From Candidatus Omnitrophota bacterium (GTDB taxonomy: Bacteria > Omnitrophota > Gorgyraeia > Zapsychrales > JAHFFX01): a stretch of 64,000 bases of DNA. Shown here in pieces: positions 13,651 to 58,402 of this stretch. The stretch lies in NCBI GenBank assembly GCA_023247705.1, contig JAHFFY010000001.1:33358-97357 (forward strand), in the 5' to 3' direction. Within the stretch, counting starts at the first letter, position 1, and each line of letters begins with the position of its first letter. A model generated the notes under the pieces. It did no database searches and was not told where the DNA came from. It saw nothing but the letters and a program-made list of their open reading frames with translations. The translations under genes were made by a program, and so were the position numbers.

Positions 13651-15042
13651 TTAGATATATCGGCGTAAATGAGAGGGAAGGATTTTTAACGAATGTCGGT
13701 ATTTGCTGACTGTTCTACGGGCAAGAACTAATCCTTTTTCCTGAAAGAGACGCTGAATATCTTGGTCTGAGAGGGGTGTATTTTTATCTTCGTTGTCCAC
13801 CATATCTTTAATTTCCTCGCGAATACTCCTGCTCGAAATATTATTCTGTTGTTCATCAACCAGGCCGTTTGAGAAAAAGAACTTGATTGGGACCACCCCT
13901 TGAGGAGTTTCAATATATTTATTTTGAATGGCTCGGCATATGGTCGATTCATTCCGGCCGATCGCCAGTGCGATCTCTTTCATGTTCATGGGCGGAATGG
14001 CACTGTTTGTTCCTTCGAAATACTCTTTTTGTTTGGTGAGGATAAACTGCGCGATTTCCCGAATAGTTGAACCGCGCTGTTCTATACTTTTGATGAAATG
14101 GAGGGCATCTCGCAGTTTTCCCTTAAGAAATTCCTTTTCTTCATTGGTTAAATTGTTTTTACTCATAATATTTTTATAGAATGAATTAATACGCAAATGG
14201 GGGATCTGCCGCATATTGATATTAATCTGATAGCCATGAACAGGATCATTTTTGATGATTACATCTGGAACAATCTCAATGTTGCTGGATAATGGACGAT
14301 AATTTCTGGCTGGTTTTGGTTCCAATAATGCGATAATTTTGATTGATTCTTTGAGTTTGTCAATGGATATCCCTAATGCGCGAGCGATTGGCGTGTATTT
14401 TTTTCGACCTAAATCTTCTAAATATAAGTCTACGATTTTATAGACAGCGGTTTCCTTTGCGTAATTTTTGTTTCGTAACTGACAAAGTAGGCATTCTTTG
14501 AGTGTAAAAGAGGCTATGCCGATCGGTTCAAAGTTTTGAATGATTCTCCTGACTTCTTCAACTGGTTCTGTGGAGGGCAGGGCAAGGACTTGTGCTATTT
14601 CATCACAAGATATTTTGAGATAGCCATCTTCATCAAGGTTTCCAATAATCAATTCGGCAATTTCGAGTTTGAGCGAATCAGATATTTCAATGCGAGCTTG
14701 TTGCAGGAGTATATCTTCCAGAGGAAGCTCTCTGGTGATTGGTTTTTCTTCAAATTCATCTTCATCCGTTGGATGGTTGTCGTATTTATTTATTTTGTTC
14801 AATTCCGTATGCTGAAGGATTTTTTGATTCATTTGGGATTCGAGGTGTGCAACAGAAGCCTCAAGGTTTTCTTCCGCCAGCTCAAGAAGCGGGTTATTTT
14901 CAAGTTCCTGCTCAATTGTTAGGCGTAGTTCAGTCAAGGGTAGCATAAGAATCGAGATAGATTGCTGCATGAGGGGAGACAGAACTGGTTTTAGGGTCTG
15001 TAAAGGTGTTAATTTGAATTTCATATGCAGAAAGTATACCAT
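13651..15042 (-). CDS. rpoN: RNA polymerase sigma-54 factor
   Basis: C-terminal RpoN box (ARRTVSKYR); HTH region; acidic region II; N-terminal Gln/Leu-rich activator-interacting region. Confidence 0.9.
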   Translation of the reverse strand: MVYFLHMKFKLTPLQTLKPVLSPLMQQSISILMLPLTELRLTIEQELENNPLLELAEENLEASVAHLESQMNQKILQHTELNKINKYDNHPTDEDEFEEKPITRELPLEDILLQQARIEISDSLKLEIAELIIGNLDEDGYLKISCDEIAQVLALPSTEPVEEVRRIIQNFEPIGIASFTLKECLLCQLRNKNYAKETAVYKIVDLYLEDLGRKKYTPIARALGISIDKLKESIKIIALLEPKPARNYRPLSSNIEIVPDVIIKNDPVHGYQININMRQIPHLRINSFYKNIMSKNNLTNEEKEFLKGKLRDALHFIKSIEQRGSTIREIAQFILTKQKEYFEGTNSAIPPMNMKEIALAIGRNESTICRAIQNKYIETPQGVVPIKFFFSNGLVDEQQNNISSRSIREEIKDMVDNEDKNTPLSDQDIQRLFQEKGLVLARRTVSKYRHSLKILPSHLRRYI

Positions 15043-15165
15043 ATGATTTTAAAATAAGGCAAATTCTAATTTTTTTTATCATATTTCCATTTTATCAATT
15101 TTAGCGGTGATGATAATAATTTTAAACATTTGTTTAACTCTTTATTTTTCTTGGCTTTTCTGTGC

Positions 15166-15188
15166 TTGTCCTACCTTGTCTAGGACAA
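15166..15188. promoter_or_regulatory. Inverted repeat TTGTCCTA-N7-TAGGACAA (candidate enhancer / bEBP binding site)
   Basis: Perfect 8-bp arms, about 140 bp upstream of the sigma-54 -24 element at 15324. Confidence 0.35.
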
Positions 15189-15323
15189 ATACGTCCATTC
15201 TTCTAAACACATACCTAAAGTGTGTCTGTAAGTGTTTTTATCAAGCGCAAAAATTTATTTCATAACTTATTGAAGATAATTAGGTTATAGATTTAAAAAA
15301 TATTCTCAACATCGATACAAAGA

Positions 15324-15424: not shown

Positions 15425-15610
15425 GTGAAGAAGAGAATGACTATTACGGAAGTCGCCGGCATGATTGGCATCAGTCCGAAAACAATAGCGCGATGGGAAA
15501 AAGTTGGAAAAATTAAAAAACCCAAACGAGATTGGCGTGGATGGCGAGTGTACGATGAAAATGATGTCACCCAGATTCGGGAATTTCATGAGACTGTGTT
15601 TGAGGTATAA
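15425..15610 (+). CDS. Small MerR/excisionase-type HTH DNA-binding protein
   Basis: TITEVAGMIGISPKTIARWEKVGKI helix-turn-helix; GTG start 6 nt after an AAAGGAGGAG RBS; first gene behind the sigma-54 promoter. Confidence 0.6.
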   Translation: MKKRMTITEVAGMIGISPKTIARWEKVGKIKKPKRDWRGWRVYDENDVTQIREFHETVFEV

Positions 15611-15648: not shown

Positions 15649-16488
15649 ATGAAACACAATATAAAAACATTTAATATTCTGATTTTAGCTTTAATGGCCA
15701 TTCTATTGGACTTTAACGTTGTTCACGCCGAAAATTATGCTGGCGGGAATCCAGAGATCAAAGCTAAAGAACAAACTCAAAAATTAACAGAAACCAAGAA
15801 TACTGATACTACTAAAGAAGCTCAAGAAGGGATGGTAGTCCAGGAACCTAGCGCAGAAGATATTCTTCAGCAATCACAATCTTTATCATCGGAATCTGAT
15901 CCGAGTCGATATACGTTAGGAGTCAATGACGTGATCGAAATATCTGTATTGCGCCATCCAGAAGTCACAGGGCAATATGTGATTAATAGTGAAGGCAAGA
16001 TCCAATACGAATTTGTCGGAGATATTAAAATTCAAGGAAAGACAAAGGATGAGGTCAAGGCGATCATAACCGAAAGTTTATCAAAATATATCGTATCTCC
16101 GGATGTAACAGTTAAAATCAGCGGATATAACAGTAAAGTCGTCTATGTCATTGGAGAAGTTGGAAATCCGGGAAAGATTTATATGCGAGGAGATACGATT
16201 ACCATTCATGAAGCTCTCCTGCAAGCGGGCTTACCGCTTTTAACCGCTTCTACGCGAAAAAGCAGGCTCATAACACCTTCAAAAGAAGGAAAGGCTTCTC
16301 AAAAATTCGTTAATGTGGAAGCTTTGCTGTATGAAGGTGACTTAAGAGAAAATTTAGTGATGAAACCTGGAGATACTCTTTATATCCCAGCAACTGTTAT
16401 GGCGAAGGCTATGAGAGTTATTTCTCCGGTCGCTCAACCAGTCGGAGCAGCCGCTACTACTGGAAGAACCGTTACGACAGGTTTTTAA
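15649..16488 (+). CDS. Polysaccharide export protein (Wza/OPX-like periplasmic Poly_export + SLBB domains)
   Basis: Signal peptide; Poly_export-like motif (YTLGVNDVIEISVLRHPE...); SLBB-like repeat (VYVIGEVGNPGKIYM). Confidence 0.8.
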   Translation: MKHNIKTFNILILALMAILLDFNVVHAENYAGGNPEIKAKEQTQKLTETKNTDTTKEAQEGMVVQEPSAEDILQQSQSLSSESDPSRYTLGVNDVIEISVLRHPEVTGQYVINSEGKIQYEFVGDIKIQGKTKDEVKAIITESLSKYIVSPDVTVKISGYNSKVVYVIGEVGNPGKIYMRGDTITIHEALLQAGLPLLTASTRKSRLITPSKEGKASQKFVNVEALLYEGDLRENLVMKPGDTLYIPATVMAKAMRVISPVAQPVGAAATTGRTVTTGF

Positions 16489-16536: not shown

Positions 16537-17841
16537 ATGGATGATTTAAATACTAGTTCGCTGTCAGTCATGAGTTATCTAAAAATATTTTTTAGAAGAA
16601 AATGGCTGTTTATTATTCCCGTGTATGCCGGTTTGATTTTCGGTGTTTGTGCAGGGATAGTTCTTCCGAAAAAATATTTATCATCCACAATTATTTTGGT
16701 AGAGGAAGGGAAATCGGATAATCCTTTGTTTAATAATTTAGCTGTTTCAACGACCGTCACGCAACGTATGACAGCGATTCAAGAGTCCATGCTCGGATGG
16801 AATAGTCTGGTCAAACTCGTTAAACGGTTAAATATGGATTCCTTGGTGAAAACGCCGCAAGATTTGGAAAAGCTGATTTTAGGCATAAGAAAGGACATAA
16901 TTATCAAATTACGTGATAAGAATATTATTGATCTATCTTACATTGGTACGGAGCCGGAACAGACTCAAGCCGTCGTTAAGAATATCACAGAAATTTTTAT
17001 CGAAAGAAACGTTGAAGTCCAAAGCAAGGAAACCTCTGATGCCATCACTTTTATAGAAGGGCAGTTGCATCTTTATCAGGGGAAGATTAAATCAGCAGAA
17101 ATTGCGCAACTTCAAGATCAATTGAATACATTATTATTAGATTCAACCGAACAACACCCGCATGTCAAGCAACTCAGAGAACAGATTGAAAACAAAAAAC
17201 AAGAATTAGCCAAAGAGAACCTGGTATATACGGAAAATGTTTCTCTGGATACAAGCACTACAAATCCTATTATTGATGAAATCAAAAAAGCTTTAGGTAA
17301 TATCGAAACAGCGAGCAATGATGGTCCCGATGCCAACGGGATCAACGATCCAGGAACCAAGGATATTTATAAAGTTATGTTAATTGATAAACTTGACAAT
17401 GTGATCGCCCGTGATGTTAATGTTAACACGAACATTTATAATATGCTTTTACAGCGACTGGAAACTGCGAAAATTACCCAGCGCCTGCAGTCGTCAAAAG
17501 AAGGTACGAAATATACAATTTTAGATCCGCCGCGGGTTCCGCTAGATCCAGTACAACCTAATAAAGTTTTAGTGATCATGATGGGAACCTTGCTTGGCGC
17601 GATCATCGGAGGGGCATTGGTTTTTGCGATCGAGTTCCTTGATAAATCGTTTCTTGATGTTGAGGAAGCCAAAGAATATCTCGGAACACCTCTTTTAGGA
17701 GCGATTTCAAAGATTGTTACAGTGGAAAGTTTGCAGCAAGACAAAGTTAAACAAGGATGGATTGCCGGATTAACCGCAGTGGCCGGAGTCATCATCGTCA
17801 TTGTCACAGTGCTGGTATCGAAATTTATTTCAAACAGTTAA
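16537..17841 (+). CDS. Polysaccharide chain-length determinant protein (Wzz/PCP family, PEP-CTERM-locus type)
   Basis: N-terminal and C-terminal TM helices flanking a long coiled-coil periplasmic region; Wzz-like N-terminal motif. Confidence 0.75.
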   Translation: MDDLNTSSLSVMSYLKIFFRRKWLFIIPVYAGLIFGVCAGIVLPKKYLSSTIILVEEGKSDNPLFNNLAVSTTVTQRMTAIQESMLGWNSLVKLVKRLNMDSLVKTPQDLEKLILGIRKDIIIKLRDKNIIDLSYIGTEPEQTQAVVKNITEIFIERNVEVQSKETSDAITFIEGQLHLYQGKIKSAEIAQLQDQLNTLLLDSTEQHPHVKQLREQIENKKQELAKENLVYTENVSLDTSTTNPIIDEIKKALGNIETASNDGPDANGINDPGTKDIYKVMLIDKLDNVIARDVNVNTNIYNMLLQRLETAKITQRLQSSKEGTKYTILDPPRVPLDPVQPNKVLVIMMGTLLGAIIGGALVFAIEFLDKSFLDVEEAKEYLGTPLLGAISKIVTVESLQQDKVKQGWIAGLTAVAGVIIVIVTVLVSKFISNS

Positions 17842-17865: not shown

Positions 17866-18750
17866 ATGTATCTTCAATTTTACGGATTTCAGGAACCACC
17901 ATTTAATATTACCCCAAATTCGCGTTTCTTTTTTTCCAGCACAAAGCACACGGAAGCCTTGAGTACTCTTGTTTATGCGATTTCGGAACGCAAAGGGTTC
18001 GTTGTGATAACCGGGGATATCGGTTCCGGCAAAACAACCGTATGCCGGGCGCTGGTCAACAAGCTGGATTCAAGAACCCAAATTGCCTTGATTACAAACA
18101 CGCTGATGAGCGGGAGAGATTTGATTACGACCATTCTAGAAGATTTAGAAGTCGATTTTACCTCCGGATCCAAGGCCAAACTTCTTTCTCAATTGAATTC
18201 ATATCTGATCGAACAATTGCGAAGCAACAATAACGTCGTTTTAATCATTGATGAAGCCCAGAATTTAACACCTTCCGTGCTAGAAGAGGTCCGCTTGTTA
18301 TCCAATTTAGAAACTGAAAATGAGAAATTGATACAAATTATTTTTCTTGGGCAACCTGAGCTTAAGAAAAAATTAGCGTTAAGTAAATTAGAGCAGCTCA
18401 GACAGCGTATTGCGGTCTTTTATCACCTTTATCCATTAACACAAAAAGAAACTCATGAATATGTGCTCCATCGGTTGAAAGTCGCCAGTGGAAGTGATCG
18501 GAATTATTTGACTCCGGAGGCCTTGGAACTGGTCTATCAGTTTTCCAAAGGGATTCCGCGATTAGTTAATCAAATTTGTGATAGCGCGTTTTTAACCGGG
18601 TATATCAACGAATCCAAAATAATCGATGCGACGATTTTGAAAGAAGTCATTGCTGAATCTCCGATGACGTTAATCGGAGATGGCACGAAGAAGGATATCA
18701 ATGTCTCGTCTTTAGATGACGATCTGCCCAAGGCATGGCTACGCGGATAA
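17866..18750 (+). CDS. ExeA/GspA-like AAA ATPase (PEP-CTERM locus secretion-ATPase family)
   Basis: Walker A GDIGSGKTT; Walker B IIDEAQNL; ExeA-like architecture. Confidence 0.7.
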   Translation: MYLQFYGFQEPPFNITPNSRFFFSSTKHTEALSTLVYAISERKGFVVITGDIGSGKTTVCRALVNKLDSRTQIALITNTLMSGRDLITTILEDLEVDFTSGSKAKLLSQLNSYLIEQLRSNNNVVLIIDEAQNLTPSVLEEVRLLSNLETENEKLIQIIFLGQPELKKKLALSKLEQLRQRIAVFYHLYPLTQKETHEYVLHRLKVASGSDRNYLTPEALELVYQFSKGIPRLVNQICDSAFLTGYINESKIIDATILKEVIAESPMTLIGDGTKKDINVSSLDDDLPKAWLRG

Positions 18751-47419: not shown

Positions 47420-48564
47420 AAACCATATTCTGGATTTTATTCATATTAATCGTGTACTGTTATTTTGGATATCCGATCCTGCTTAGCGTTTTCGCCAGCT
47501 GCCGTACGCGAAAAGTTATAAAACAAGAAATTTTTCCAACCATTTCCGTTGTGATCTCGGTTGCGAATGAGGAATCGGTCATTGAGAAGAAGATGAGTAA
47601 CCTTTTATCCATGGATTATCCTTCCGACAAACTGGAAATTTTAATCGGATCGGATGGTTCAACGGATAAAACGAATGATATCGTCCGAAATTTTAACGAC
47701 AAACGCATTCAGCTAATTGTTAGTTCACAGCGAAAAGGGAAGATGGCGACCGTTAATCAACTGGTTCAACTGGCCCAAAACGAAATGATCGTTTTTACGG
47801 ATGCCCGTCAGATGTTTGACCGAGTTGCTTTTAAGGAATTGGTTTTTAACTTTGCCGATCCACACGTAGGATGTGTCAGCGGAGAGTTGATTTTTACGAA
47901 AAAGGAAGGCTCGACCGCTCAGGGAATTAATCTATACTGGGAATATGAAAAATTTATGCGTCAAAAAGAAAGCCAACTTCATTCCATGATCGGGGCAACA
48001 GGAGCGATCTATGCGATCCGTCGAAAATTGTTTGTTCCTGCGCCGACCAATATGATTTTGGATGATGTTTTTACGCCGCTTAAAATTGTTCAACAAGGGT
48101 ACCGTGCGATCTTTGAGGGACAGGCGATCGCTTACGATGAAGCGGCAAACAACCCAAAAGAAGAATATGCGCGGAAAGCCAGAACCTTAGCCGGCAATTA
48201 TCAGATATTTTTTGTTTTGCCGGACATCTTTAACCCCTTGAAAAGTCCTTTGGCGATTCAGATGTTCTCGCATAAACTGCTAAGGGTTTTGATCCCATTT
48301 TTTTTGATTTTTTTGCTCATTATCAATTTTAAATTAAGAAACAATCAATTTTTTATTTTTATTTTATGGGGCCAGATCCTTTTCTACGGGATGGCGATAT
48401 TGGGAAGCTTGGCAAAAAAACCAAAATATGCTATTCTTAAGCCTATTTCTAAAATGTGTTATATTCCCTATGTCTTTTGTCTCCTTAATTTCTCTGCTTT
48501 AGCTGGATTTTGGCGCTTTGTTCGGTCTTCGCAGACGGTCACTTGGGAGAAGGCAAGGACTTAG
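47416..48564 (+). CDS. Family 2 glycosyltransferase with N- and C-terminal TM segments (processive-type topology)
   Basis: ISVVISVANEE, DGSTD, TDAR motifs; C-terminal multiple TM helices. Confidence 0.75.
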   Translation: MKTIFWILFILIVYCYFGYPILLSVFASCRTRKVIKQEIFPTISVVISVANEESVIEKKMSNLLSMDYPSDKLEILIGSDGSTDKTNDIVRNFNDKRIQLIVSSQRKGKMATVNQLVQLAQNEMIVFTDARQMFDRVAFKELVFNFADPHVGCVSGELIFTKKEGSTAQGINLYWEYEKFMRQKESQLHSMIGATGAIYAIRRKLFVPAPTNMILDDVFTPLKIVQQGYRAIFEGQAIAYDEAANNPKEEYARKARTLAGNYQIFFVLPDIFNPLKSPLAIQMFSHKLLRVLIPFFLIFLLIINFKLRNNQFFIFILWGQILFYGMAILGSLAKKPKYAILKPISKMCYIPYVFCLLNFSALAGFWRFVRSSQTVTWEKART

Positions 48565-48586
48565 CGAAACGATTCAAAATAACGAT

Positions 48587-49405
48587 ATGCGTGAGTTAAT
48601 TACAAAATATAAAAACCAATTTTTAATTGCTTTAATCTTATTATTTACCTATACGCCCACATTAATTTGGATGTGGGATCGATGGTTTACTCGGGATTCT
48701 TATTATTCGCATGGGATTCTTATTCCATTCATTACAGCTTATTTAATCTGGCAGAATAGATCACAGTTAATGCAGATGAAACCAGAAAAATCCGAGATAG
48801 GGATGAAATTGATCATTCTCGGACTGTTTGTTCATTTAATTAGTTCTCTTTTCCGGGTTTATTTTTCCTCTGGTTTTTCTCTGGTGATTGTTATTATCGG
48901 ACTCATTCTTTATTTTTATGGAGAAAAAATTTTAAAAGATATCTCGTTCCCGATCGTTTTTTTATTTTTTATGGTTCCCTTACCGCTGGTTGTTATTATC
49001 AATATTAGTTTTAAGATGAAATTATTCGCGGCTCAAATTGCGGCTGTTGTGTTAAATAGCATGAATATTCTGGCGGTCAGGGAGGGGAGCCTGATTCGCA
49101 TGGCTAATGCCCAAGTTGTCGTCGATGATGTCTGCAGCGGGTTGCGATCTTTGATGTCGTTGACGGCCTTAGGAAGCATTTTTGCGTATTGGATGAAAGG
49201 GCCGATGTGGAAGCGGCTTTTACTGTTTTTGTCTACAGTCCCCATCGCGGTGATCACAAATGTGTGCCGAATTATATTGCTTGCTTCGGTCAGCGAGATT
49301 TGGGGGTCGAAATACGCGACGGGGTTTATTCATGATCTTTCTGGCTTTATTGTTTTTGCGTTAGCTTTTATTTTATTGTATTCAGTTTCTAGGTTAATGG
49401 AATAA
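48587..49405 (+). CDS. Exosortase (EpsH/XrtA family)
   Basis: Eight-TM architecture. Conserved exosortase motifs: DDVCSGLRSL (catalytic Cys region), NVCRIILL (Asn/Arg) and the HD-like C-terminal motif. The track ORF starts at 48518, overlapping the upstream gene. Confidence 0.85.
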   Translation: MRELITKYKNQFLIALILLFTYTPTLIWMWDRWFTRDSYYSHGILIPFITAYLIWQNRSQLMQMKPEKSEIGMKLIILGLFVHLISSLFRVYFSSGFSLVIVIIGLILYFYGEKILKDISFPIVFLFFMVPLPLVVIINISFKMKLFAAQIAAVVLNSMNILAVREGSLIRMANAQVVVDDVCSGLRSLMSLTALGSIFAYWMKGPMWKRLLLFLSTVPIAVITNVCRIILLASVSEIWGSKYATGFIHDLSGFIVFALAFILLYSVSRLME

Positions 49406-49407
49406 AT

Positions 49408-50043
49408 ATGATACGTGATAAAAATTTTGGCATCATTGTTTGTCTTCTATTAATTTCCGGAATAATTTCCTGGGTTTTATATTTCAAGGAATATACTCAA
49501 GTGGATACAGTGGATATTACCAAATTTCCGAAATCGATATCGGGCTGGACAGCTGAAGATCTTCCAATCAGCAAGGAAGAGTATGATATTTTAGAGACTC
49601 ACAATGTCGTAGCAAGGCGTTATAAAAATATTCAGAATGAACCGATATATCTCTTAATTGTTTATTCTCAGCATAATCGCAAAATTTCTCATCCTCCAGA
49701 AGTTTGCTATACAGGGGGAGGCGTTACTATTTTAGAAAATGTTAAAGATAAGATCCCTGTTTCTGCAGGAAAGAATATAATCAGTGCGAACCGATTACTT
49801 TTAGAGCTAAGGGGGACCAAGCAGTTTTCGTATTATTGGTTTAAAGTAGGCGATTCGTTTACCGCGAACTATTGGAATCAACAAGCCCTCATTGCCGTAA
49901 AAACATTGTTTGGGCAGCCTCATAGTAGCGCATTAATTCGAATTTCATCCGACATCAGCAAGAATGATGAAAAAGGGGCTATTGATCGAATTAAGTACTT
50001 TACAAATTTGATCCTAAATGATTTAAATCGATATCTGCCGTAA
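49408..50043 (+). CDS. EpsI-family exosortase-associated protein
   Basis: N-terminal TM; size, position (immediately 3' of exosortase) and ISGWTAEDLPISKEEYDIL...VVARRY region match the EpsI family. Confidence 0.7.
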   Translation: MIRDKNFGIIVCLLLISGIISWVLYFKEYTQVDTVDITKFPKSISGWTAEDLPISKEEYDILETHNVVARRYKNIQNEPIYLLIVYSQHNRKISHPPEVCYTGGGVTILENVKDKIPVSAGKNIISANRLLLELRGTKQFSYYWFKVGDSFTANYWNQQALIAVKTLFGQPHSSALIRISSDISKNDEKGAIDRIKYFTNLILNDLNRYLP

Positions 50044-50080
50044 AAAATATCAAATCGTTGGGACCTCAAATCATGAATAA

Positions 50081-50099
50081 TTCTGTTTGTTAAACAGAA
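50081..50099. promoter_or_regulatory. Inverted repeat TTCTGTTT-gtt-AAACAGAA (candidate enhancer site)
   Basis: Perfect 8-bp arms with a 3-bp spacer, about 200 bp upstream of the sigma-54 promoter at 50298. Confidence 0.3.
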
Positions 50100-50297
50100 A
50101 ATTTTTTTTCGATCCGAAAAAGGGATGAAAATTAAAAACAACATGCGTTTAATAAATTCAACATCTTTTGATTCTAATTTTATAATTTCCCAATAAATTG
50201 TTGGAAATTGTTAAGTTTTTATAGTTTCTCTTATTGTAAGGTTATATTTAGCAATAATTTATAATAGAGGTGTTTCTTAAATGATTTTTAAAAAACT

Positions 50298-50313
50298 TGG
50301 CACATTATTTGCT
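50298..50313 (+). promoter_or_regulatory. Sigma-54 (-24/-12) promoter, TGGCAC-N5-TTGCT
   Basis: Exact consensus at 50298-50303 / 50309-50313; about 45 nt upstream of the ATG at 50358; the same 16-mer architecture as the promoter at 15324. Confidence 0.7.
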
Positions 50314-50357
50314 ATAAAGATTGTGTACCAAAGTTTAACAAAGCTAAATTTACATCT

Positions 50358-51224
50358 ATGGAAACTCAGAAAAAAATCAATCACAACTCTAAAGGAAAAA
50401 TGACAGTTGTTTTAGCGGTCATTTTCCTCATGCTATTTGTTCAAGCAGCTTGGGCGACCCTTTCCTTTCTCAAACCGTATGACAGTGACATCCAATCAAC
50501 GAATATAAAGGAAGGCAATGCATCAGAAATTCCTGAGCAATTACCCGAAAATTCGAAATCGCATGCTCCTGAGCCGACAACTCTAGCGTTATTTGGGAGT
50601 GGTGTTCTTGGGATGGTTGTGAGTGCCATTCGAAAGGCTTATAACCATGCAAAAAGAATTTTTGATATATTTGTATCAATTGTCGCTTTTATCATCCTTT
50701 CTCCATTGTTTTTATTTGCTGCCGTTCTCATCAAGTTGAGCTCCCGCGGACCGGTTTTGTTCACCCAAGAGCGAGTAGGAAAAGATGGAAAACATTTCAA
50801 AATTTATAAATTCCGTACCATGCGCGTGGATGCTGAGAAAGAAACAGGGCCGGTTTGGGCAAAGGCAAATGACACTAGACTTATCCCTTCCGGACGTTTT
50901 TTAAGAAAGACTCATATTGATGAAATCCCTCAGTTTTTTAATGTCCTTATAGGTGACATGAGTATTATTGGGCCAAGACCTGAACGGCCAGTTTTCGTAA
51001 CTAAATTTAAAGAAATTATTCCTGATTATGAACAAAGACTATCAGTCAAACCGGGCATTACTGGTTTAGCGCAAGTTTGGCATAAATATGATGAGACGAT
51101 CGAAGATGTCCGTAAAAAAATCCGTTATGATTTGTTATATATTAAAAAGTTATGTCTTTGGACTGATTTAAAGATATTTTTAAGGACTTTTCGGGTTGTT
51201 CTAACTGGAGAGGGAGCTCGATAG
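50358..51224 (+). CDS. Polyprenyl-phosphate sugar phosphotransferase (small WcaJ/EpsL-type priming enzyme) with an N-terminal signal-peptide + PEP-CTERM-like module
   Basis: The catalytic domain starts at KRIFDIFVSIV..., the usual N-terminus of small priming sugar transferases, and contains RTMRVDAE and IIGPRPERP motifs. The preceding 85 aa carry a signal peptide (VVLAVIFLMLFVQAAWA) and a PEP-CTERM-like motif (APEPTTLALFGSGVLGMVVSAIRKAYNHAKR). Confidence 0.75.
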   Translation: METQKKINHNSKGKMTVVLAVIFLMLFVQAAWATLSFLKPYDSDIQSTNIKEGNASEIPEQLPENSKSHAPEPTTLALFGSGVLGMVVSAIRKAYNHAKRIFDIFVSIVAFIILSPLFLFAAVLIKLSSRGPVLFTQERVGKDGKHFKIYKFRTMRVDAEKETGPVWAKANDTRLIPSGRFLRKTHIDEIPQFFNVLIGDMSIIGPRPERPVFVTKFKEIIPDYEQRLSVKPGITGLAQVWHKYDETIEDVRKKIRYDLLYIKKLCLWTDLKIFLRTFRVVLTGEGAR

Positions 51225-51292
51225 TTAAGTAATAAATTTTTGAGTAAAAAAAGTATTGTTTAATTTGATCAGTACAGTTACAATCTAATATC

Positions 51293-51321
51293 TTGACATC
51301 TAGGTGGTGTCTTTATATAGA
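51293..51321 (+). promoter_or_regulatory. Sigma-70 promoter (TTGACA-N17-TATAGA, or N15-TATATA) upstream of the major PEP-CTERM protein gene
   Basis: TTGACA at 51293-51298; -10 at 51316-51321; strong GGGGGAG RBS before the ATG at 51378. Confidence 0.5.
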
Positions 51322-51377
51322 GAATAGTTTCAAACCGTAATAAAAAGATAAATGTAACAAATAAAGGGGGAGTTTAA

Positions 51378-52289
51378 ATGAAGAAGTTATTTGTAGTTTT
51401 AGCCCTAGTTGTTGGAGTGTTCTCAATTAACTCCCAAGTTTGGGCACAACCGTTTACACCATCGATGGCGGGAGATACTTATGATACTACGCCAGATGCG
51501 ATCCCGACTCCTAAGGATAATAATGATAACTTAGGACCTTATTCGGGTACGCCTTATACGTTAAGTTCAACAGAACCTGGTTCACATGGACCTAACCCGG
51601 CGGACATCAACGATGCCATCAATTTGCTTTTGAGCACTGCTTACGTAAGAAATCAAGATGTTGATTTCCTTCGTTTTCTTGGCCCAGATGCAACCTGGAA
51701 AGACTTGAGCACAATAGATAACGATGGAACATATGTGCTCGTTTCTCTTACCGCAGCTAACGAAAATACCTTAAGAGTGTATGATGTGGCTTCACCTGGG
51801 ATTAAATTGAATGTTCTTGGCCCAGATCGGGGTTTTGGATATACTGGGGATGGAAGCCTGGCTAAACCTTTTGAGGCTGGTTTTTCTCCATTAACTCCAG
51901 GAACGAACTTTGGTTGGTCACTAAAAAGTGAAAGAAAGGCACCCCAGACTCCTCCATTTTTTGTAAGAGAATGGGATTCCAATGTCGCTTTTAACGTTGA
52001 TGGTTTGGATCATATGTTGACATACCATTTAGCCGATTTAAAAGGTAAGAAAGTTTACATCAAAGTTGGCACGGTTGTTCAGCAGTATACGTTTAACGAT
52101 CCATATCTTTTAGCCTGGGAAGACAAAGGATTAGGCACAGATGGTAAACTAGGCGATGAAGATTATGATGATCTTATTTATCTAGTTGATCGCGTTCAAC
52201 CTTTCAACCCGGTTCCAGAACCGATGAGCATGATGTTGCTCGGTAGTGGGTTGGTTGGTTTAGTTGGTTTAAGAAAGAAGATTAGTTAA
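51378..52289 (+). CDS. PEP-CTERM domain secreted protein (exosortase substrate)
   Basis: Sec signal peptide (AQP cleavage); C-terminal VPEPMSMMLLGSGLVGLVGLRKKIS (PEP motif + TM helix + basic tail). Confidence 0.85.
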   Translation: MKKLFVVLALVVGVFSINSQVWAQPFTPSMAGDTYDTTPDAIPTPKDNNDNLGPYSGTPYTLSSTEPGSHGPNPADINDAINLLLSTAYVRNQDVDFLRFLGPDATWKDLSTIDNDGTYVLVSLTAANENTLRVYDVASPGIKLNVLGPDRGFGYTGDGSLAKPFEAGFSPLTPGTNFGWSLKSERKAPQTPPFFVREWDSNVAFNVDGLDHMLTYHLADLKGKKVYIKVGTVVQQYTFNDPYLLAWEDKGLGTDGKLGDEDYDDLIYLVDRVQPFNPVPEPMSMMLLGSGLVGLVGLRKKIS

Positions 52290-52381: not shown

Positions 52382-52660
52382 ATGTCAAAAGACACGAAAA
52401 AACTTTTATCTTTTGCCCTTATCTCGTTATTTCTCCCGTTCTTTGTCGGGTGTCAAGGTGCTGCCAATCAACTAAGTGAATTCACCTTGGGTGGGGGTGG
52501 TACAAACAATGCTGTTAGTTCTGGTTTTTTCCCCCTTAGTGTTGTAGATGGAGGTACTGCGATAGCAGCCATCCACAATCCAGAACCTACAACAGTGTTA
52601 TTGTTAGGGAGTGGCTTCATAACAATGGGTTTATATAGGAATCGAAGAAAGAATAGATAA
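52382..52660 (+). CDS. Mini lipoprotein with C-terminal PEP-CTERM domain (dual-anchor exosortase substrate)
   Basis: Lipobox FFVGC after a signal peptide; C-terminal HNPEPTTVLLLGSGFITMGLYRNRRKNR; AGGAGAGGAGG RBS. Confidence 0.75.
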   Translation: MSKDTKKLLSFALISLFLPFFVGCQGAANQLSEFTLGGGGTNNAVSSGFFPLSVVDGGTAIAAIHNPEPTTVLLLGSGFITMGLYRNRRKNR

Positions 52661-52686: not shown

Positions 52687-52731
52687 AAAAAAATACGGTA
52701 GGATGAGTGATCTTCCTACCGTATTTTTTTT
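52687..52731 (+). terminator. Rho-independent (bidirectional-type) terminator after the PEP-CTERM genes
   Basis: A-tract at 52687-52692; 11-bp stem ATACGGTAGGA (52693-52703) / TCCTACCGTAT (52714-52724); 10-nt loop; T8 at 52725-52732. Confidence 0.8.
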
Positions 52732-52770: not shown

Positions 52771-52798
52771 TTGACACGAATCGTATCTATGTTAAAAT
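52771..52798 (+). promoter_or_regulatory. Sigma-70 promoter (TTGACA-N16-TAAAAT) for the regulatory operon
   Basis: TTGACA at 52771-52776; TAAAAT at 52793-52798. Confidence 0.45.
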
Positions 52799-52836: not shown

Positions 52837-53706
52837 ATGAATAAGCATAAAAACAATAAAAGTTTGATTTCTTTGCTGCGGTCATCAATTGAGATTCTAT
52901 TTCATAAACCATTGATTTTCTATCCCTATGTGATTTCAATTTTTATTCAACTTTTTGTGCTTGAAATTTTATACTTTGCACCGCGGTATCCTTTATCGCT
53001 ATTTTTTGCTCCCCTGATCAGACAATTTTGGGGGGAAATGTTTTTACATTTTCCGTTTAATCTCCTTTTATTGCCTGTTTTATTCCAATACGTAAAAACC
53101 CCGATTTATATTATCTCGAGCAGTTATCTCATTGGGATAGCAATCATTATCATCGCTGCCATTAACGAAGATCAAACGATTAGCTTTAAATCGGCCGCCA
53201 AAAAGGTATTGCCTCGCTATATCCATTTGATCTTCATCACTAGCATTTCTTATTCACTTTTTTATGGATTTTCGCAACTTTATGGATTGGTGATCAAAAG
53301 GGCCTTTATTATTCACTCTGAGACAGGAATATTTTATTTAATTAAGCGGATTGTGCTTGATGGGACTCCCTTTTTCTCCCTTTTAATAAGCGTTTTTGTT
53401 TCGACCCTCTTAGTTTTTATGATGCCGCTCCTCCTGCTCGAAAAAAAGAATTTATTCGCAGCGTTTTGGACTAATTTGAAGAAAGTTATTAAATCCTTCT
53501 GGTTTGTCTTGGGGATTGTTTTATTGCCGACCTTGTTATATCTGCCAGTCTTGTTATTGAGTAGTAATCTATCGAGTTTTGGAAATGGGGTTGCTCCTGA
53601 AATCCGAATGTCCCTCACAATAGCCAATATCCTTATTATAGTGATCATTGATGCCATCGTTTATACAGCGATAACATTATATTATTTATTTGATCAAGAA
53701 AATTAA
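52837..53706 (+). CDS. Polytopic membrane protein, hypothetical (possibly the detached sensor module of a PrsK-like kinase)
   Basis: About 7 predicted TM helices; no catalytic motifs; first gene of the operon containing the TPR protein, histidine kinase and sigma-54 regulator. Confidence 0.4.
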   Translation: MNKHKNNKSLISLLRSSIEILFHKPLIFYPYVISIFIQLFVLEILYFAPRYPLSLFFAPLIRQFWGEMFLHFPFNLLLLPVLFQYVKTPIYIISSSYLIGIAIIIIAAINEDQTISFKSAAKKVLPRYIHLIFITSISYSLFYGFSQLYGLVIKRAFIIHSETGIFYLIKRIVLDGTPFFSLLISVFVSTLLVFMMPLLLLEKKNLFAAFWTNLKKVIKSFWFVLGIVLLPTLLYLPVLLLSSNLSSFGNGVAPEIRMSLTIANILIIVIIDAIVYTAITLYYLFDQEN

Positions 53707-54614
53707 TGATTAAACGATCAATATTAATCTTTACCAGCATTCTCACCGTAGTCTATGGAATTCTTACTTTCCTTGACAGGGGGGGAGAGTATCAAGTCGA
53801 GCAGATGATTTGGAAGGCGAATGAAAAATTTCATGAGATCGCCAGAGATCCTGCCGCAGTTCCCGATCAATCTTTTGACCAACTTAGTCGACAGTATCAA
53901 AAAATTATTGAAAAATTCCCTAAATCGCCGTTAGCCAAAAAAGCGTATTTGGCGATTGGAAGGTTATATTTGGTGCAAAAAGATTTTCCGAAAACACGAC
54001 TAGTCATGGAGAAAGTCCTGCAAAGATATCCGGATGATCAGGATTTCTCAGCGGAATGTCTTACGGTCATAGGAAAATCATATGAGTTGGCAGGAGATCC
54101 GGTCAACGCGGTTAAGGTTTACACAGGCATAATGACCCAATATCCTGTAACGGATATCGGACTAAGTACGCCGTTATATATCGCAAATTATTACAAGAGC
54201 ATAAATCAAAACAATAAATTTATGTCAGCCTATAATAGTGCGATTTCACATTATAAAACTCTATCAGCGAAATATCCTAATTCCTCAACAGATCTGAAAA
54301 GTCTTCGTTTATTGGCGAATTGTTATATTGAAATGAAAATGTGGAATGAGGCCGTAGAGACTTTCGGACAGATATTAATATCATACCCTTCTAAGGCTGA
54401 TCTCACCCCGCAACGGGCAAATTTGATCCTCAAATCGATTAATACTATTTCAACCATCCAGCTTAAGAATTATGATATTCCGATACGCATATACCAAAAC
54501 TTCATTGATCAACATCCCCAACATGGTTTAAACAAGGTTCTCCATGAGATGATAAAATCCTTTAATCTCTTGCGAATTAAAGGCGTGGAGGTCGACACTA
54601 AGAATGCGGGATAA
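53706..54614 (+). CDS. TPR-repeat protein (PrsT-like)
   Basis: N-terminal TM/signal segment followed by several TPR-like 34-residue repeats (AYLAIGRLYLVQKDF..., AECLTVIGKSYELAGD...). Confidence 0.6.
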   Translation: MIKRSILIFTSILTVVYGILTFLDRGGEYQVEQMIWKANEKFHEIARDPAAVPDQSFDQLSRQYQKIIEKFPKSPLAKKAYLAIGRLYLVQKDFPKTRLVMEKVLQRYPDDQDFSAECLTVIGKSYELAGDPVNAVKVYTGIMTQYPVTDIGLSTPLYIANYYKSINQNNKFMSAYNSAISHYKTLSAKYPNSSTDLKSLRLLANCYIEMKMWNEAVETFGQILISYPSKADLTPQRANLILKSINTISTIQLKNYDIPIRIYQNFIDQHPQHGLNKVLHEMIKSFNLLRIKGVEVDTKNAG

Positions 54615-54623
54615 ATCCTACGC

Positions 54624-55934
54624 TTGATTATCATGACTAGAACACTAGAAGATTTTTCTCACAGCATTCTTTTTCAAAAAATTAGCGATATTTGTGCCAG
54701 CGTTAATATCGTTAAGAATGCGCGCGAACTTTTAGAATTGTCCTTGAAGCAAACGATGGATCTTTTTGGCGCAAAAAGAGGCTCGATTTTTATTTTTAAT
54801 GAGAATAAGAAAGAATTGATCCTGAAGATCGCGCATGGTATGGAAATAAATGAACAAAAGCAAATGGTCAAACGTTTGGGAGAAGGAGTGGTCGGTAAGG
54901 TTGCTCAAATCAAAAAGCCTATTGTTGTCTATGATATCGCGGATGACAGCCGATTTAACAATTTTAAACCTAGGCGAAGCTATCATACACCATCGTTCAT
55001 TTGTGGTCCGCTGTTAATTAAAGATAAACTCATAGGGGTCATTAACATTGCGGATAAAAATTCTGGACATCGTTTTAATAATGAAGAGCTTCAGCTCCTT
55101 GATTTTTTGTCAAGTCAGATTGCCCTGAACTATCGGCGCATACAACTGTATCAGAAATTTAAGAATTTAGTCAAAGAGTCCAAATACCTTAAAACTAAAT
55201 TAGGCAAAAGCAGCGCTGAAGCAGATGATCTAAAGAAGAAAATTGTAGTGCAAGAAAAATTTGCCTCAATCGGGAAACTTGCTGGAGGCATTGCGCATGA
55301 ATTTAATAACCCTTTAGATGGCGTTATCCGCTACACAAATCTTTCGTTAGAGCATATTAAAGACGATGATGTCGTTCGTGGATATTTATTAGAAATTAAG
55401 TATGGCCTTAATCGTATGGCAAATATCGTGAGAAGTCTTCTTGCCTGTTCACGAAATTCACGTCTTGCTATAGAGGAAATCGAAATTAATCGTTCGATTG
55501 AACAAGTGATTCTTAATCTTAAATCAGAAATTGCATATAAGAAGTTAATCATCGAGAAAGATTTTGATCATACGATCCCACCGATTATGGATTTAGGGAT
55601 GGAGTTAATCGTTTCCAACTTGTTTCGTAATGCCATTGACGCAGTTGATAAGGGGGGGAAAGTCACGGTTGTTACGCGAAATTTACACAATTATGTTTCG
55701 CTTAAAATCATTGATTCAGGATGCGGATTTTCAAGAGAATTAGCTCAAAAAATATTAGAGCCATTTTATACAACCAAAGACATTGATAAAGGATGTGGCT
55801 TAGGGTTAACGATTGTTAACGAAATCGTCAAGAGTTATGACGGAAAGATGACGATTGAAAGCGTCCCGAAAAAAGGTTCAACATTCACGATTTTTATTCC
55901 ATTAAAGATAAAAGATGAAAAAAGAATTATATAG
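54624..55934 (+). CDS. Sensor histidine kinase with N-terminal GAF domain (cytoplasmic; PrsK-like partner of the sigma-54 regulator)
   Basis: GAF domain (res ~30-180); H-box HEFNNPL; N/G1/G2 boxes (NAIDAV...; IDSGCGF; GCGLGL). Confidence 0.8.
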   Translation: MIIMTRTLEDFSHSILFQKISDICASVNIVKNARELLELSLKQTMDLFGAKRGSIFIFNENKKELILKIAHGMEINEQKQMVKRLGEGVVGKVAQIKKPIVVYDIADDSRFNNFKPRRSYHTPSFICGPLLIKDKLIGVINIADKNSGHRFNNEELQLLDFLSSQIALNYRRIQLYQKFKNLVKESKYLKTKLGKSSAEADDLKKKIVVQEKFASIGKLAGGIAHEFNNPLDGVIRYTNLSLEHIKDDDVVRGYLLEIKYGLNRMANIVRSLLACSRNSRLAIEEIEINRSIEQVILNLKSEIAYKKLIIEKDFDHTIPPIMDLGMELIVSNLFRNAIDAVDKGGKVTVVTRNLHNYVSLKIIDSGCGFSRELAQKILEPFYTTKDIDKGCGLGLTIVNEIVKSYDGKMTIESVPKKGSTFTIFIPLKIKDEKRII

Positions 55935-57330
55935 CGCCTATCACATCCTCATTGTAGATGATGAGCCGCTGATTCGACAGTCATTGTATGAAATCTTGAG
56001 AATTGAGGGCTACAAAGTACATATGGCTCAAAATGGAGAAGAAGCGATAGAATTACTCAAAAAATTTCATATTGATATTATTTTAACGGATATGAAGCTT
56101 CCTAAAATGAGCGGGCTTGATATTCTGACTTTTGTGAAAGAAAACAAGCCTGACATCGAAGTTATATTAATAACGGGTTTTGGAACAATCGAATCTGCTG
56201 TCGATGCCATGCGAAAAGGGGCTGCAGACTATATCACAAAACCAATCAATGATAGTGAAATTAAAATTATTCTTAACCAAATTGTAGAACGCAAACAAAT
56301 TCTTAAAGAAAATTTAAATTTAAAAAAGATTATCGCACAAACTTCCCGAAAATCTTTTTGCAGTATCATTGGATCCAGCCCGAAAATGCAGAAGGTCTAC
56401 CACGTGATTGACTGTGTTGCAAGCACGAATGCGACAGTCCTAATTACAGGGGAAAGTGGAACAGGAAAGGGTTTGGTGGCGAGAGCAATTCATGAAAGTG
56501 ATCAGAATCGATCCGAGAAACCTTTTGTAGAGGTCAGCTGTGGGGCTCTTTCGGAAACATTGCTTGAAAGTGAGTTGTTTGGACATGCCAAAGGATCATT
56601 TACTGGAGCAATTCGAGATAAAGAGGGAAGATTTGAAATCGCGCAGGGTGGAACGATTTTTCTCGATGAGATTGATGCATTTTCGCCTAATTTACAAGCG
56701 AAACTTTTACGCGTATTGCAAGATGGAGTATTTGAACGTGTTGGCGATAACCAAACGCGAAGAACTAATGCTCGAATTATCGTTGCCACCAATCAGGTTT
56801 TAACCGATTTAGTGGAGAAAGAACTTTTTAGAGAAGATCTTTATTACCGAATCAATGTGATTTCGATTCAATTGCCTCCGTTACGAGAACGAAGGGATGA
56901 TATTGATTCTTTAATAACGCATTTCATTCAGATGTATGCCCAAAAAAATAATAAAAAGATTACTAAATTATCAGAAGATGCCCATAAAGTTTTTATAACA
57001 TATGAATGGCCAGGAAATATTCGTGAACTGGAAAATGCCATCGAAGGCGCTGTCATTATGACGAAAGACCATGTCATTAATATTTCAGATGTCCCCAATC
57101 ATACCAAATTTTCAGCTTCAACGTCGTTAAGCACTAATAAATCATCAAGCTCTAAATCTCTTAAGAAAGTGTTAGAACAGCCAGAAAGAGAACTTATTCT
57201 TTCTGTTCTCGATGAATGCAATTGGAATCGCAACAAAGCCGCGGCGAATTTAGGAATAAACAGGACAACCTTATATAACAAAATGAAAAAATTTAAAATT
57301 ATCTTTGACCGGGTCAAAACGCATGAATAA
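55915..57330 (+). CDS. Sigma-54-dependent response regulator (NtrC family; PrsR-like)
   Basis: Receiver domain (phospho-acceptor Asp in ILTDMKLP); AAA+ sigma-54 activation domain with GESGTGKG, ESELFGH and GSFTGA (GAFTGA variant); C-terminal Fis-type HTH. Confidence 0.9.
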   Translation: MKKELYSAYHILIVDDEPLIRQSLYEILRIEGYKVHMAQNGEEAIELLKKFHIDIILTDMKLPKMSGLDILTFVKENKPDIEVILITGFGTIESAVDAMRKGAADYITKPINDSEIKIILNQIVERKQILKENLNLKKIIAQTSRKSFCSIIGSSPKMQKVYHVIDCVASTNATVLITGESGTGKGLVARAIHESDQNRSEKPFVEVSCGALSETLLESELFGHAKGSFTGAIRDKEGRFEIAQGGTIFLDEIDAFSPNLQAKLLRVLQDGVFERVGDNQTRRTNARIIVATNQVLTDLVEKELFREDLYYRINVISIQLPPLRERRDDIDSLITHFIQMYAQKNNKKITKLSEDAHKVFITYEWPGNIRELENAIEGAVIMTKDHVINISDVPNHTKFSASTSLSTNKSSSSKSLKKVLEQPERELILSVLDECNWNRNKAAANLGINRTTLYNKMKKFKIIFDRVKTHE

Positions 57331-58402
57331 TCCGGAATATTTAAGACATGAATTTATGGAGCAATTGATCAATAGAGAAAAATGGGTCGATATTCTGAAG
57401 CATTTTATTGATGTGTTGCAAATCGATATTTTCTTAGTTAGTCTTGATGGAGAAGTGATTATCCCTCCGTGTAAAGATAAATACGGGGGAGAATTATGGA
57501 CAGCGAATTCCGACTTCACATCCACGGGAAAAGAAAAAAATATGAATTTTTTGACAAAATTTGAGAAACACGGAATGTACCTCGAATATAATCATCATTC
57601 CGACCTGCAAAGTTTTGCAATCCCCCTACAGCTCGAAGAAGGAAAAACGCTCGCGTATATGATTGTTGGTCCTGTTGCTTTAAACAAGCGACTTGATTCT
57701 CAAGATTTGAAGAAAATCAAATCAATTACTGAAAAATTATCCGTCAATGCCGAACGTGTTGTCAGTATCTTGCATGAAATTAGAGTTGTGTCGTTTCTTA
57801 CGATGAAATCAATCCTTGATTTATTATTTGAGGTATCAAAATATGTTCTGCAGCTTAGTTCTCAGGGGCAAAAATTTCAGAAATTGACAACGAATAAAGA
57901 AAGCATCGCTCAGCAAGTCAGCGATGCAGCTCAAGATATTTATTCTTCAATATGTCTTGATGAATTACTGGTCACGCTTTTGGATGTTGCGCTCAGTATG
58001 ACAAAGACAGAATGTGGCTCGATTATGGTTTTTGATCAAAATAATCAAGTTTTAACGATTAAAGTATCCCGGGGGTTAAATACGGAAATCGCGAGTTCGA
58101 CTCAGATTAAAATTGGGCAAGGAGTTGCGGGGTATTCAGCCCAGAAGAAATTACCGCTGATTATACGTGGGACCCATGGGGATAATCGGATTAAGAGTTA
58201 TTTAAAAAGACCAGAAATTCAACATGCCCTAGTTGTCCCAATCTTGACCGAAAACAATGTGTTCGGAGTTTTAAATTTACATACAAAACGCAAGAGAAGC
58301 AATATCAATGATGAGAGCCTGGGATTAATTCAAAACCTATCCAAATTAACTTCCGCCGCTATAAGCAGTATTCAGCAAAAGCAAAACTCAGATTTTAATT
58401 AA
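57305..58402 (+). CDS. GAF-domain protein with unknown N-terminal domain
   Basis: C-terminal GAF fold (LDVALSMTKTECGSIMVFD...GQGVAGY...VVPIL). Overlaps the regulator gene's end, so likely co-transcribed. Confidence 0.55.
   Translation: MTGSKRMNNPEYLRHEFMEQLINREKWVDILKHFIDVLQIDIFLVSLDGEVIIPPCKDKYGGELWTANSDFTSTGKEKNMNFLTKFEKHGMYLEYNHHSDLQSFAIPLQLEEGKTLAYMIVGPVALNKRLDSQDLKKIKSITEKLSVNAERVVSILHEIRVVSFLTMKSILDLLFEVSKYVLQLSSQGQKFQKLTTNKESIAQQVSDAAQDIYSSICLDELLVTLLDVALSMTKTECGSIMVFDQNNQVLTIKVSRGLNTEIASSTQIKIGQGVAGYSAQKKLPLIIRGTHGDNRIKSYLKRPEIQHALVVPILTENNVFGVLNLHTKRKRSNINDESLGLIQNLSKLTSAAISSIQQKQNSDFN

Follow-up and report, generated by a model that had tools for sequence, protein, structure and literature searches.

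The window analysed here, a stretch of 64,000 nucleotides from Candidatus Omnitrophota, contains a PEP-CTERM/exosortase polysaccharide cluster with two sigma-54 promoters, P1 (15324-15339) and P2 (50298-50313), both pointing into operons of the cluster. This work deals with P2 and its control. According to a gene map made from NCBIfam and Pfam scans, P2 lies in a 314-nt intergenic region (50044-50357) surrounded by genes on the + strand. Upstream are the genes for an exosortase (xrt, 48518-49405) and EpsI (49408-50043); the first gene behind P2 encodes a priming polyprenyl glycosylphosphotransferase (PGT, 50358-51224; TIGR03025 with 313.7 bits for a cut-off of 295.6, and PF02397) and is followed by two genes for proteins with PEP-CTERM motif matches (51378-52289 and 52382-52660). 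Further downstream are genes for a protein of unknown function (52837-53706), a TPR protein of 302 aa (53706-54614), a cytoplasmic kinase with the Pfam domains GAF, HisKA and HATPase (54624-55934), a sigma-54 activator of REC-AAA+-HTH_8 architecture (55915-57330, PF00158) and a PocR-GAF protein (57305-58402).

Direct reading of the + strand at 50298-50313 gave TGGCACATTATTTGCT (TGGCAC-attat-TTGCT), a perfect 16-nt match to the -24/-12 element of sigma-54 promoters, with the GG and GC dinucleotides exactly 10 bp apart. Two perfect copies of TGGCAC-N5-TTGCW were present in the window (15324 and 50298; 0.05 expected from dinucleotide-preserving shuffles), both on the + strand and both intergenic. 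Their -24/-12 cores are identical, as an earlier annotation of the same DNA (hereafter the first-pass annotation) had described. Two other sigma-54-like sites (39252 and 54684, 1 mismatch each) were intragenic and at chance level, and were discarded. The P2 element ends 44 nt before the ATG at 50358; transcription is predicted to start near 50323-50325, leaving a leader of about 33 nt before this ATG.

A scan of a genome collection with the PGT protein provided about 30 loci from metagenome-assembled genomes of Candidatus Omnitrophota (51-68% protein identity), and a Logan assembly (SRR14366787) contained an identical sequence. Every informative Omnitrophota locus (29/29) had the element TGGCAY-N5-(T/A)TGCT ahead of its orthologous PGT gene, on the coding strand, against a background of 0.14 such elements per kb-strand over 810 kb-strands of the same loci, true sites included (2 mismatches at most being allowed outside the invariant GG and GC). 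The distance from the end of the element to the ATG of PGT is 38-68 nt in close relatives, a range that includes the window, and local tblastn comparisons revealed a conserved order: xrt, epsI, P2, PGT, PEP-CTERM genes, unknown protein, TPR protein, histidine kinase, enhancer-binding protein and GAF protein. Such conservation of the P2 element is strong comparative evidence of function and upholds as genuine the sigma-54 promoter that had been claimed before the PGT/PEP-CTERM block; the sigma-54 reading of P2 is very likely, because the element is conserved and because both rpoN and an activator are encoded in the cluster. In L114, the relative whose PGT is closest in identity (73%), epsI and the promoter are separated by an inserted methyltransferase gene (1778-2659 of that locus), and the promoter module stays with PGT.

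The terminator scan found no strong terminator between the PGT gene and the two PEP-CTERM genes, and both are probably co-transcribed from P2. This transcription unit probably ends at an intrinsic terminator on the + strand (52689-52731) with a stem of about 14 bp followed by U8 (-24.6 kcal/mol, z -5.56, 0/200 shuffles as stable). Behind it lies a sigma-70-like promoter (52771-52798) with matches at 11/12 positions (TTGACA-16-TAAAAT with TG), and the genes downstream of this promoter overlap or nearly abut. From this succession of strong terminator, sigma-70-like promoter and overlapping or abutting genes we infer two units: PGT and the two PEP-CTERM genes, transcribed from P2, and the regulatory genes, transcribed from their own sigma-70 promoter. 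The operon for the unknown protein, TPR protein, kinase, activator and GAF protein would run from the 52771-52798 promoter, and the regulators appear insulated from P2.

A strong sigma-70 promoter had also been proposed for the major PEP-CTERM gene (51293-51321; perfect TTGACA, with a -10 of TATAGA at 17 nt or TATATA at 15 nt), but this candidate proved weak: it was not listed by the consensus scan and was not evidently conserved in L001, L002, L003 or L009. The bases of its proposed -35 and spacer (51295-51311) form a 6-bp hairpin with a T-rich tail, flagged by the terminator scan, and may be either promoter or attenuator. A search of 49900-51500 against Rfam returned no credible known RNA family.

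Once aligned on the promoter, the P2 upstream regions of the relatives showed three conserved modules (positions are given relative to the T of TGGCAC), none of them the palindrome to which the first-pass annotation had drawn attention (50081-50099, see below). One is a TGTC array, made of 2-4 TGTC units (unit consensus TTGTCATAGN) with a 10-bp period and at fixed positions, e.g. -126/-116/-106 at P2; in the P1 loci the array stands at -160/-150/-143. Another is a palindromic box of 18 bp, TGTT-N10-AACA (fuller form TGTTTAA-N4-TTAAACA), often doubled, the two copies lying 18-20 bp apart between about -140 and -182; L002, L009, L031 and L037, for instance, have tandem boxes 18-20 bp apart at -175 to -181 and -157 to -161. 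An nhmmer model of the box alone held too little information, and pattern counts were compared with the background instead: boxes with 1 mismatch or less were present in 37/40 P1 loci and 22/28 P2 loci (0.127 expected per 180 nt), and perfect boxes in 22/40 and 11/28 respectively (0.014 expected), loci without a TGTC array being included in these counts. The remaining module is an IHF-like element matching WATCAANNNNTTR, located at -49 to -56 on the + strand or at -61 to -68 on the - strand. It forms a conserved alignment block in the P2 loci, 19/28 of which have a site with 1 mismatch or less and 5 a perfect one (background 0.154 and 0.010 per 85 nt, respectively). Box and TGTC array were found at both P1 and P2 across the family.

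The P2 region of the window carries a proximal 18-bp palindromic box (CGTTTAATAAATTCAACA, 50146-50163; 1 mismatch to TGTT-N10-AACA) at -152, in line with the boxes of close relatives (-150 to -161), and this is one of only two matches with 2 mismatches to TGTTTAA-N4-TTAAACA in the window. A distal degenerate palindromic box (TGAAAATTAAAAACAACA, 50126-50143; 2 mismatches), weak when taken alone, lies 20 bp further upstream. By virtue of its position and conservation, and not of within-window statistics, the proximal box is the best candidate for the binding site of the enhancer-binding protein. Between box and promoter there is an IHF-consensus-like site on the + strand (TAGCAATAATTTA, 50249-50261; 1 mismatch to WATCAANNNNTTR) at -49, the same position as the perfect sites of L004 and L031. 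The intergenic region (50044-50357) has 24% G+C, and the spacer 0.21-0.24 as compared with 0.40 for the window, so that the highly AT-rich spacer reported by the first-pass annotation was corroborated; the bend also proposed for it gains in plausibility from the IHF-consensus-like element, which makes a DNA-bending site probable.

P1, the other sigma-54 promoter, is on the + strand and divergent from rpoN (13651-15042, - strand; TIGR02395 with 378 bits for a cut-off of 277), the gene for sigma-54 itself. It is followed on the + strand by genes for a 61-aa MerR/BldC-like helix-turn-helix (HTH) protein (15425-15610), a Wza-like exporter (15649-16488), a chain-length determinant (16537-17841) and an AAA ATPase (17866-18750), and then by around 30 kb of polysaccharide genes. 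Scanning metagenomes with the Wza-like protein provided 52 loci, most of which shared the same arrangement: rpoN on the - strand, the divergent sigma-54 promoter, and then the small HTH, wza, chain-length determinant, AAA and ParA-like genes. The small HTH protein was 58-87% identical across relatives, above the conservation of its neighbours. In L011, rpoN is located at the opposite end of the cluster, after the GAF gene. In Omnitrophota this surface-polymer system may account for most of what sigma-54 does.

P1 is preceded by a highly conserved block of about 55 nt, TTTCC-N5-TGTC-N6-TGTC-N3-GACA-N4-TGTTCATTCTTTTAAACA, which in the window (15157-15210) comprises TGTC-N6-TGTC-N3-GACA plus a box. 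An nhmmer model built from metagenome P1 loci only matched the window at 15157-15210 (E-value 2.7e-10), and most of its best matches in the PGT loci fell in P2 upstream regions. The palindrome that the first-pass annotation had described at P1 (TTGTCCTA-N7-TAGGACAA, 15166-15188) is therefore the TGTC motif of the family, which relatives also have at P2. The P1 regions of L067, L072, L074, L079, L088, L089 and others showed a conserved TATAAT about 8-10 nt before the TTTCC-TGTC block, with a TNGACA-like hexamer or a distal TGTT-N10-GACA box about 17 nt further upstream. This arrangement resembles a sigma-70 promoter directed into the TGTC array, which could serve both as operator and as enhancer module; in the window, the -10 of the corresponding region (15111-15160) is poor.

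When all six frames were scanned for GAFTGA, ESELFGH and Walker motifs, 55915-57330 was the only GAFTGA-type protein of the window, and no second activator was obtained. Its Fis-type recognition helix (GINRTTLYNKMKK) was nearly invariant in the window and in 16 relatives, with or without the array. Two enhancer-binding proteins, or one with relaxed specificity, had been proposed on account of the different palindromes of the two promoters; since the family as a whole has box and array at both promoters and there is one activator gene in the window, a single regulon with one local activator fits best, and that proposal is not supported. The box, palindromic, tandem and the most widely retained of the modules, is putatively bound by the activator. 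The TGTC array was tentatively assigned to the MerR/BldC-like HTH protein, by analogy with the BldC family, which oligomerises head-to-tail on direct repeats.

The most probable explanation, in our opinion a likely one, is that P2 is a functional RpoN promoter of a three-gene unit, belonging to an Omnitrophota-wide regulon and activated by the kinase/activator pair of the cluster through the box and an IHF-like bend; the pairing of elements with proteins, the transcription start, the limits of the operons and the activity in vivo are predictions. What the sequences show directly is that the elements are there and exceed chance, where they stand, how well they are conserved and which genes accompany them. 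The pair, encoded downstream behind the 52771-52798 promoter, would sense a signal, and the phosphorylated REC-AAA+-HTH_8 activator would bind the TGTT-N10-AACA box or boxes about 135-170 bp upstream of -24 (50126-50163). The IHF-like bend (50249-50261) would then bring the activator to the closed sigma-54 holoenzyme, ATP hydrolysis would open the promoter, and P2 would transcribe PGT and the two PEP-CTERM genes as far as 52689-52731. The other member of the regulon, P1, would drive the MerR/BldC-like HTH gene and then the export and chain-length genes. The P2 of the window has lost the 10-bp-phased TGTC array, which P1 keeps.

Several observations weigh against this explanation. The box at 50146-50163 has one mismatch, and matches of this quality are not rare (0.127 per 180 nt); box-like matches with 3 mismatches or less numbered 14 in the window for 8.4 expected. 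A simple motif search found no IHF/HU gene in the window. The loop of the activator reads GSFTGA (residue 227) and not GAFTGA; GSFTGA was also present in L021, GAFTGA in 14 other relatives checked, and the motif was not found in L024. The P2 of the window is without the TGTC array that most relatives have: nhmmer gave no match there with models of the P1 block or of the array, the best score of a TGTC weight matrix over 50044-50297 was -4.9 (equalled in 481/1000 shuffles), and TGTC-N6-TGTC occurs in the window only at P1. If the array is the site of the activator, activation of P2 may be weak or its control different. TTGTT-N5-TTGTT, which may be what is left of the array in degenerate form, lies at the expected place on the + strand (50198-50212). 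Among the closest relatives, there is a single TGTC unit in L001/L116, and L114 has two units with a degenerate one between them.

An alternative that we consider rather unlikely is that the TGTC array, and not the box, is the activator site and that the P2 of the window has lost its enhancer; P2 would then be weak or constitutively silent, be activated from solution, or be served only by TTGTT-N5-TTGTT. The fixed positions of the array in most P2 loci and in the P1 loci speak for it, as do the nhmmer matches linking P1 to P2, which are driven by the array, and the count of TTGTY-N5-TTGTY in the window (4 for 0.93 expected), 2/4 of these copies being upstream of the two sigma-54 promoters. Nevertheless, in L011, L015, L016, L017, L001 and the window the sigma-54 promoter and a box are retained, with no array or a single unit, and the recognition helix is nearly unchanged in those where the activator was found (L001, L011, L017 and the window). 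Fis-type HTH dimers of the NtrC family, moreover, usually bind inverted repeats and not direct ones, and the MerR/BldC-like HTH protein, encoded by the conserved first gene of P1, is an alternative binder for the array. An enhancer with two inputs, in which the activator would occupy the tandem boxes and the BldC-like HTH protein would polymerise head-to-tail on the TGTC array, gating or shaping the loop, appeared unlikely, slightly more so than an activator bound to the array. Were it true, loss of the array at P2 would uncouple priming and PEP-CTERM synthesis from HTH feedback, and the export operon would keep this feedback.

The palindrome described upstream of P2 is indeed present (TTCTGTTT-gtt-AAACAGAA, 50081-50099), 38 nt past the epsI stop codon and followed by AA and T8 (50102-50109). 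The enhancer role proposed for it, in which it would be the upstream activating sequence of P2 and be bound by a second or relaxed-specificity enhancer-binding protein, was judged very unlikely. Its arms, TGTTT/AAACA, equal the half-site pentamers of the TGTTTAA-N4-TTAAACA box, and TGTTTGTTAAACAGAAAA is formally a TGTT-N10-AACA with 1 mismatch at -214, P1 having a distal box at about -215; the half-sites are nonetheless separated by 3 nt and not by 8, which places them on opposite helix faces. Perfect palindromes with 8-bp arms (loops of 0-10 nt) arose in 21% of composition-preserving shuffles of the 314-nt region. A motif search of the kind suggested by the first-pass annotation, run on the window and the fetched loci, showed no recurrence: with up to 3 mismatches the palindrome was unique in the window, and it was present in none of the 117 fetched loci, which include about 30 orthologous ones and, among these, the closest (L114 and L001/L116). 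Its centre is around 234 bp from the predicted start, beyond the conserved modules, and these modules are common to both promoters across the family, with one enhancer-binding protein only in the 64 kb. The palindrome is thus not part of the conserved design and is probably not the enhancer of P2. It might at most be an auxiliary low-affinity site, an improbable role kept in view on account of the identity of its arms with the box half-sites; otherwise it is a chance feature or a weak terminator-like hairpin, and its function is doubtful.

Such a hairpin, together with the T-run, might act as a weak intrinsic terminator or pause that ends or attenuates the xrt-epsI transcript and leaves PGT dependent on P2. 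This reading is compatible with activation of P2 through the box, and we hold it to be doubtful, about as improbable as binding of the activator to the array. The position of an 8-bp hairpin followed by AA and U8 shortly after the epsI stop codon would suit it, as would a second small hairpin behind it (50105-50121). As RNA, however, the palindrome has 2 G-C pairs in 8 and a stability of -5.9 kcal/mol, much weaker than the clear terminator of the locus at 52689-52731 (-24.6 kcal/mol); the folding of the region does not surpass that of shuffles (z +0.44), the palindrome is not among the hits of the terminator scan, and inspection of the relatives' regions by eye brought no equivalent hairpin to notice.

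Sigma-54 control of PEP-CTERM systems has been described in other bacteria. Haft et al. 2006 (PMC1569441) reported that proteobacterial PEP-CTERM genes are preceded by a sigma-54 motif and, ahead of that, a 17-nt "motif 1" with TTTACA at its end, which they linked to PrsR, PrsK and PrsT and found in Proteobacteria only; pepA of Aquincola is RpoN1-dependent, with a mapped transcription start (PMC9850573); and Francke et al. 2011 described control of the cell exterior as a general role of sigma-54. As in the Prs system and Aquincola pepA, the Omnitrophota -24/-12 promoter is preceded by a conserved upstream motif. Further likenesses to Prs are an NtrC-type response regulator, a histidine kinase and a TPR protein in or near the exosortase/exopolysaccharide cluster, long AT-rich intergenic regions, and PEP-CTERM proteins among the targets. 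The proteins themselves differ: the activator of the window scored 401.3 bits against PrsR (TIGR02915, cut-off 502.6), its best match being the AtoC model, also below cut-off; the kinase, of a soluble GAF type, scored 85 bits for 300 against the transmembrane PrsK (TIGR02916), in the catalytic part only; and the 302-aa TPR protein scored 20 bits for 312 against PrsT (TIGR02917), a large TPR lipoprotein. The upstream motifs differ as well, being in Omnitrophota the TGTT-N10-AACA box and the TGTC array; TTTACA, the end of the motif 1 that in Prs lies about 63 nt upstream of the sigma-54 motif, was absent from 50200-50297. In addition, the Omnitrophota promoters precede the export operon and the priming transferase and not each PEP-CTERM gene, and rpoN is physically linked to the Omnitrophota cluster, unlike in Prs.

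The architecture of P2 also resembles that of classical enhancer-dependent promoters of the NtrC/NifA type with an IHF bend (glnAp2, nifH): a GG-N10-GC promoter, a palindromic site about 100-170 bp upstream, an IHF-consensus-like site between them and a REC-AAA+-Fis-HTH activator. NifA binds TGT-N10-ACA and NtrC TGCACC-N5-GGTGCA, whereas the half-sites in Omnitrophota are TGTT-N10-AACA and most relatives have an extra phased module of direct repeats.

The latter module recalls the BldC family of stand-alone MerR-like winged HTH proteins, which oligomerise head-to-tail on direct repeats (PMC5859096). The 61-aa HTH protein corresponds to a MerR N-terminal domain (PF13411 MerR_1, 43.8 bits) and its length leaves no room for a coiled coil, while the TGTC array is composed of 2-4 direct repeats on one helix face. 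It matched the 71-72-aa chains of PDB entries 6amk and 6ama (E-value about 1e-4), listed as "Putative DNA-binding protein", which we take to be BldC-DNA structures. Unlike in BldC, the period of TGTC is 10 bp and not 9, the repeat is unrelated to AATTNNNN(C), and the score of the HTH protein against the BldC model NF033787 (31.9 bits) is below the cut-off of 77. This likeness concerns P1 and the P2 of relatives, and not the array-less P2 of the window.

The literature search found no paper on this sigma-54/PEP-CTERM system in Omnitrophota. It is a variant, specific to the phylum, of a known design, the control of PEP-CTERM systems by sigma-54. Control of this kind had been described for Proteobacteria only, through PrsK/PrsR/PrsT and a motif of their own; the independent version conserved across the Omnitrophota loci examined has different regulators, different enhancer modules and a linked rpoN. 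The cells of this uncultured phylum are very small and possibly attached to hosts, and surface polymers probably play a central part in their way of life. The cis-elements and candidate binding proteins proposed here are concrete enough to be tested in vitro without culturing, and the regulatory model of the window is corrected to one regulon with one local activator, instead of two.

Two further features of PGT and its promoter region were observed. In seven more distant loci (L014, L015, L017, L018, L023, L024 and L025) the first in-frame ATG of PGT is located 12-16 nt past the -12 element, in a conserved TGCT-TATATA context; in these Omnitrophota the sigma-54 transcript would be leaderless or nearly so, which is unusual. 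As for the protein, residues 70-93 of the window PGT match the PEP-CTERM motif PF07589 (23.0 bits, cut-off 20.7). This match precedes the Bac_transf domain and falls between a signal-like segment at the N-terminus and the catalytic domain. An exosortase signal within a membrane enzyme is odd, and the combined annotation PF07589 plus PF02397 is common to many PGT homologues in the protein database.

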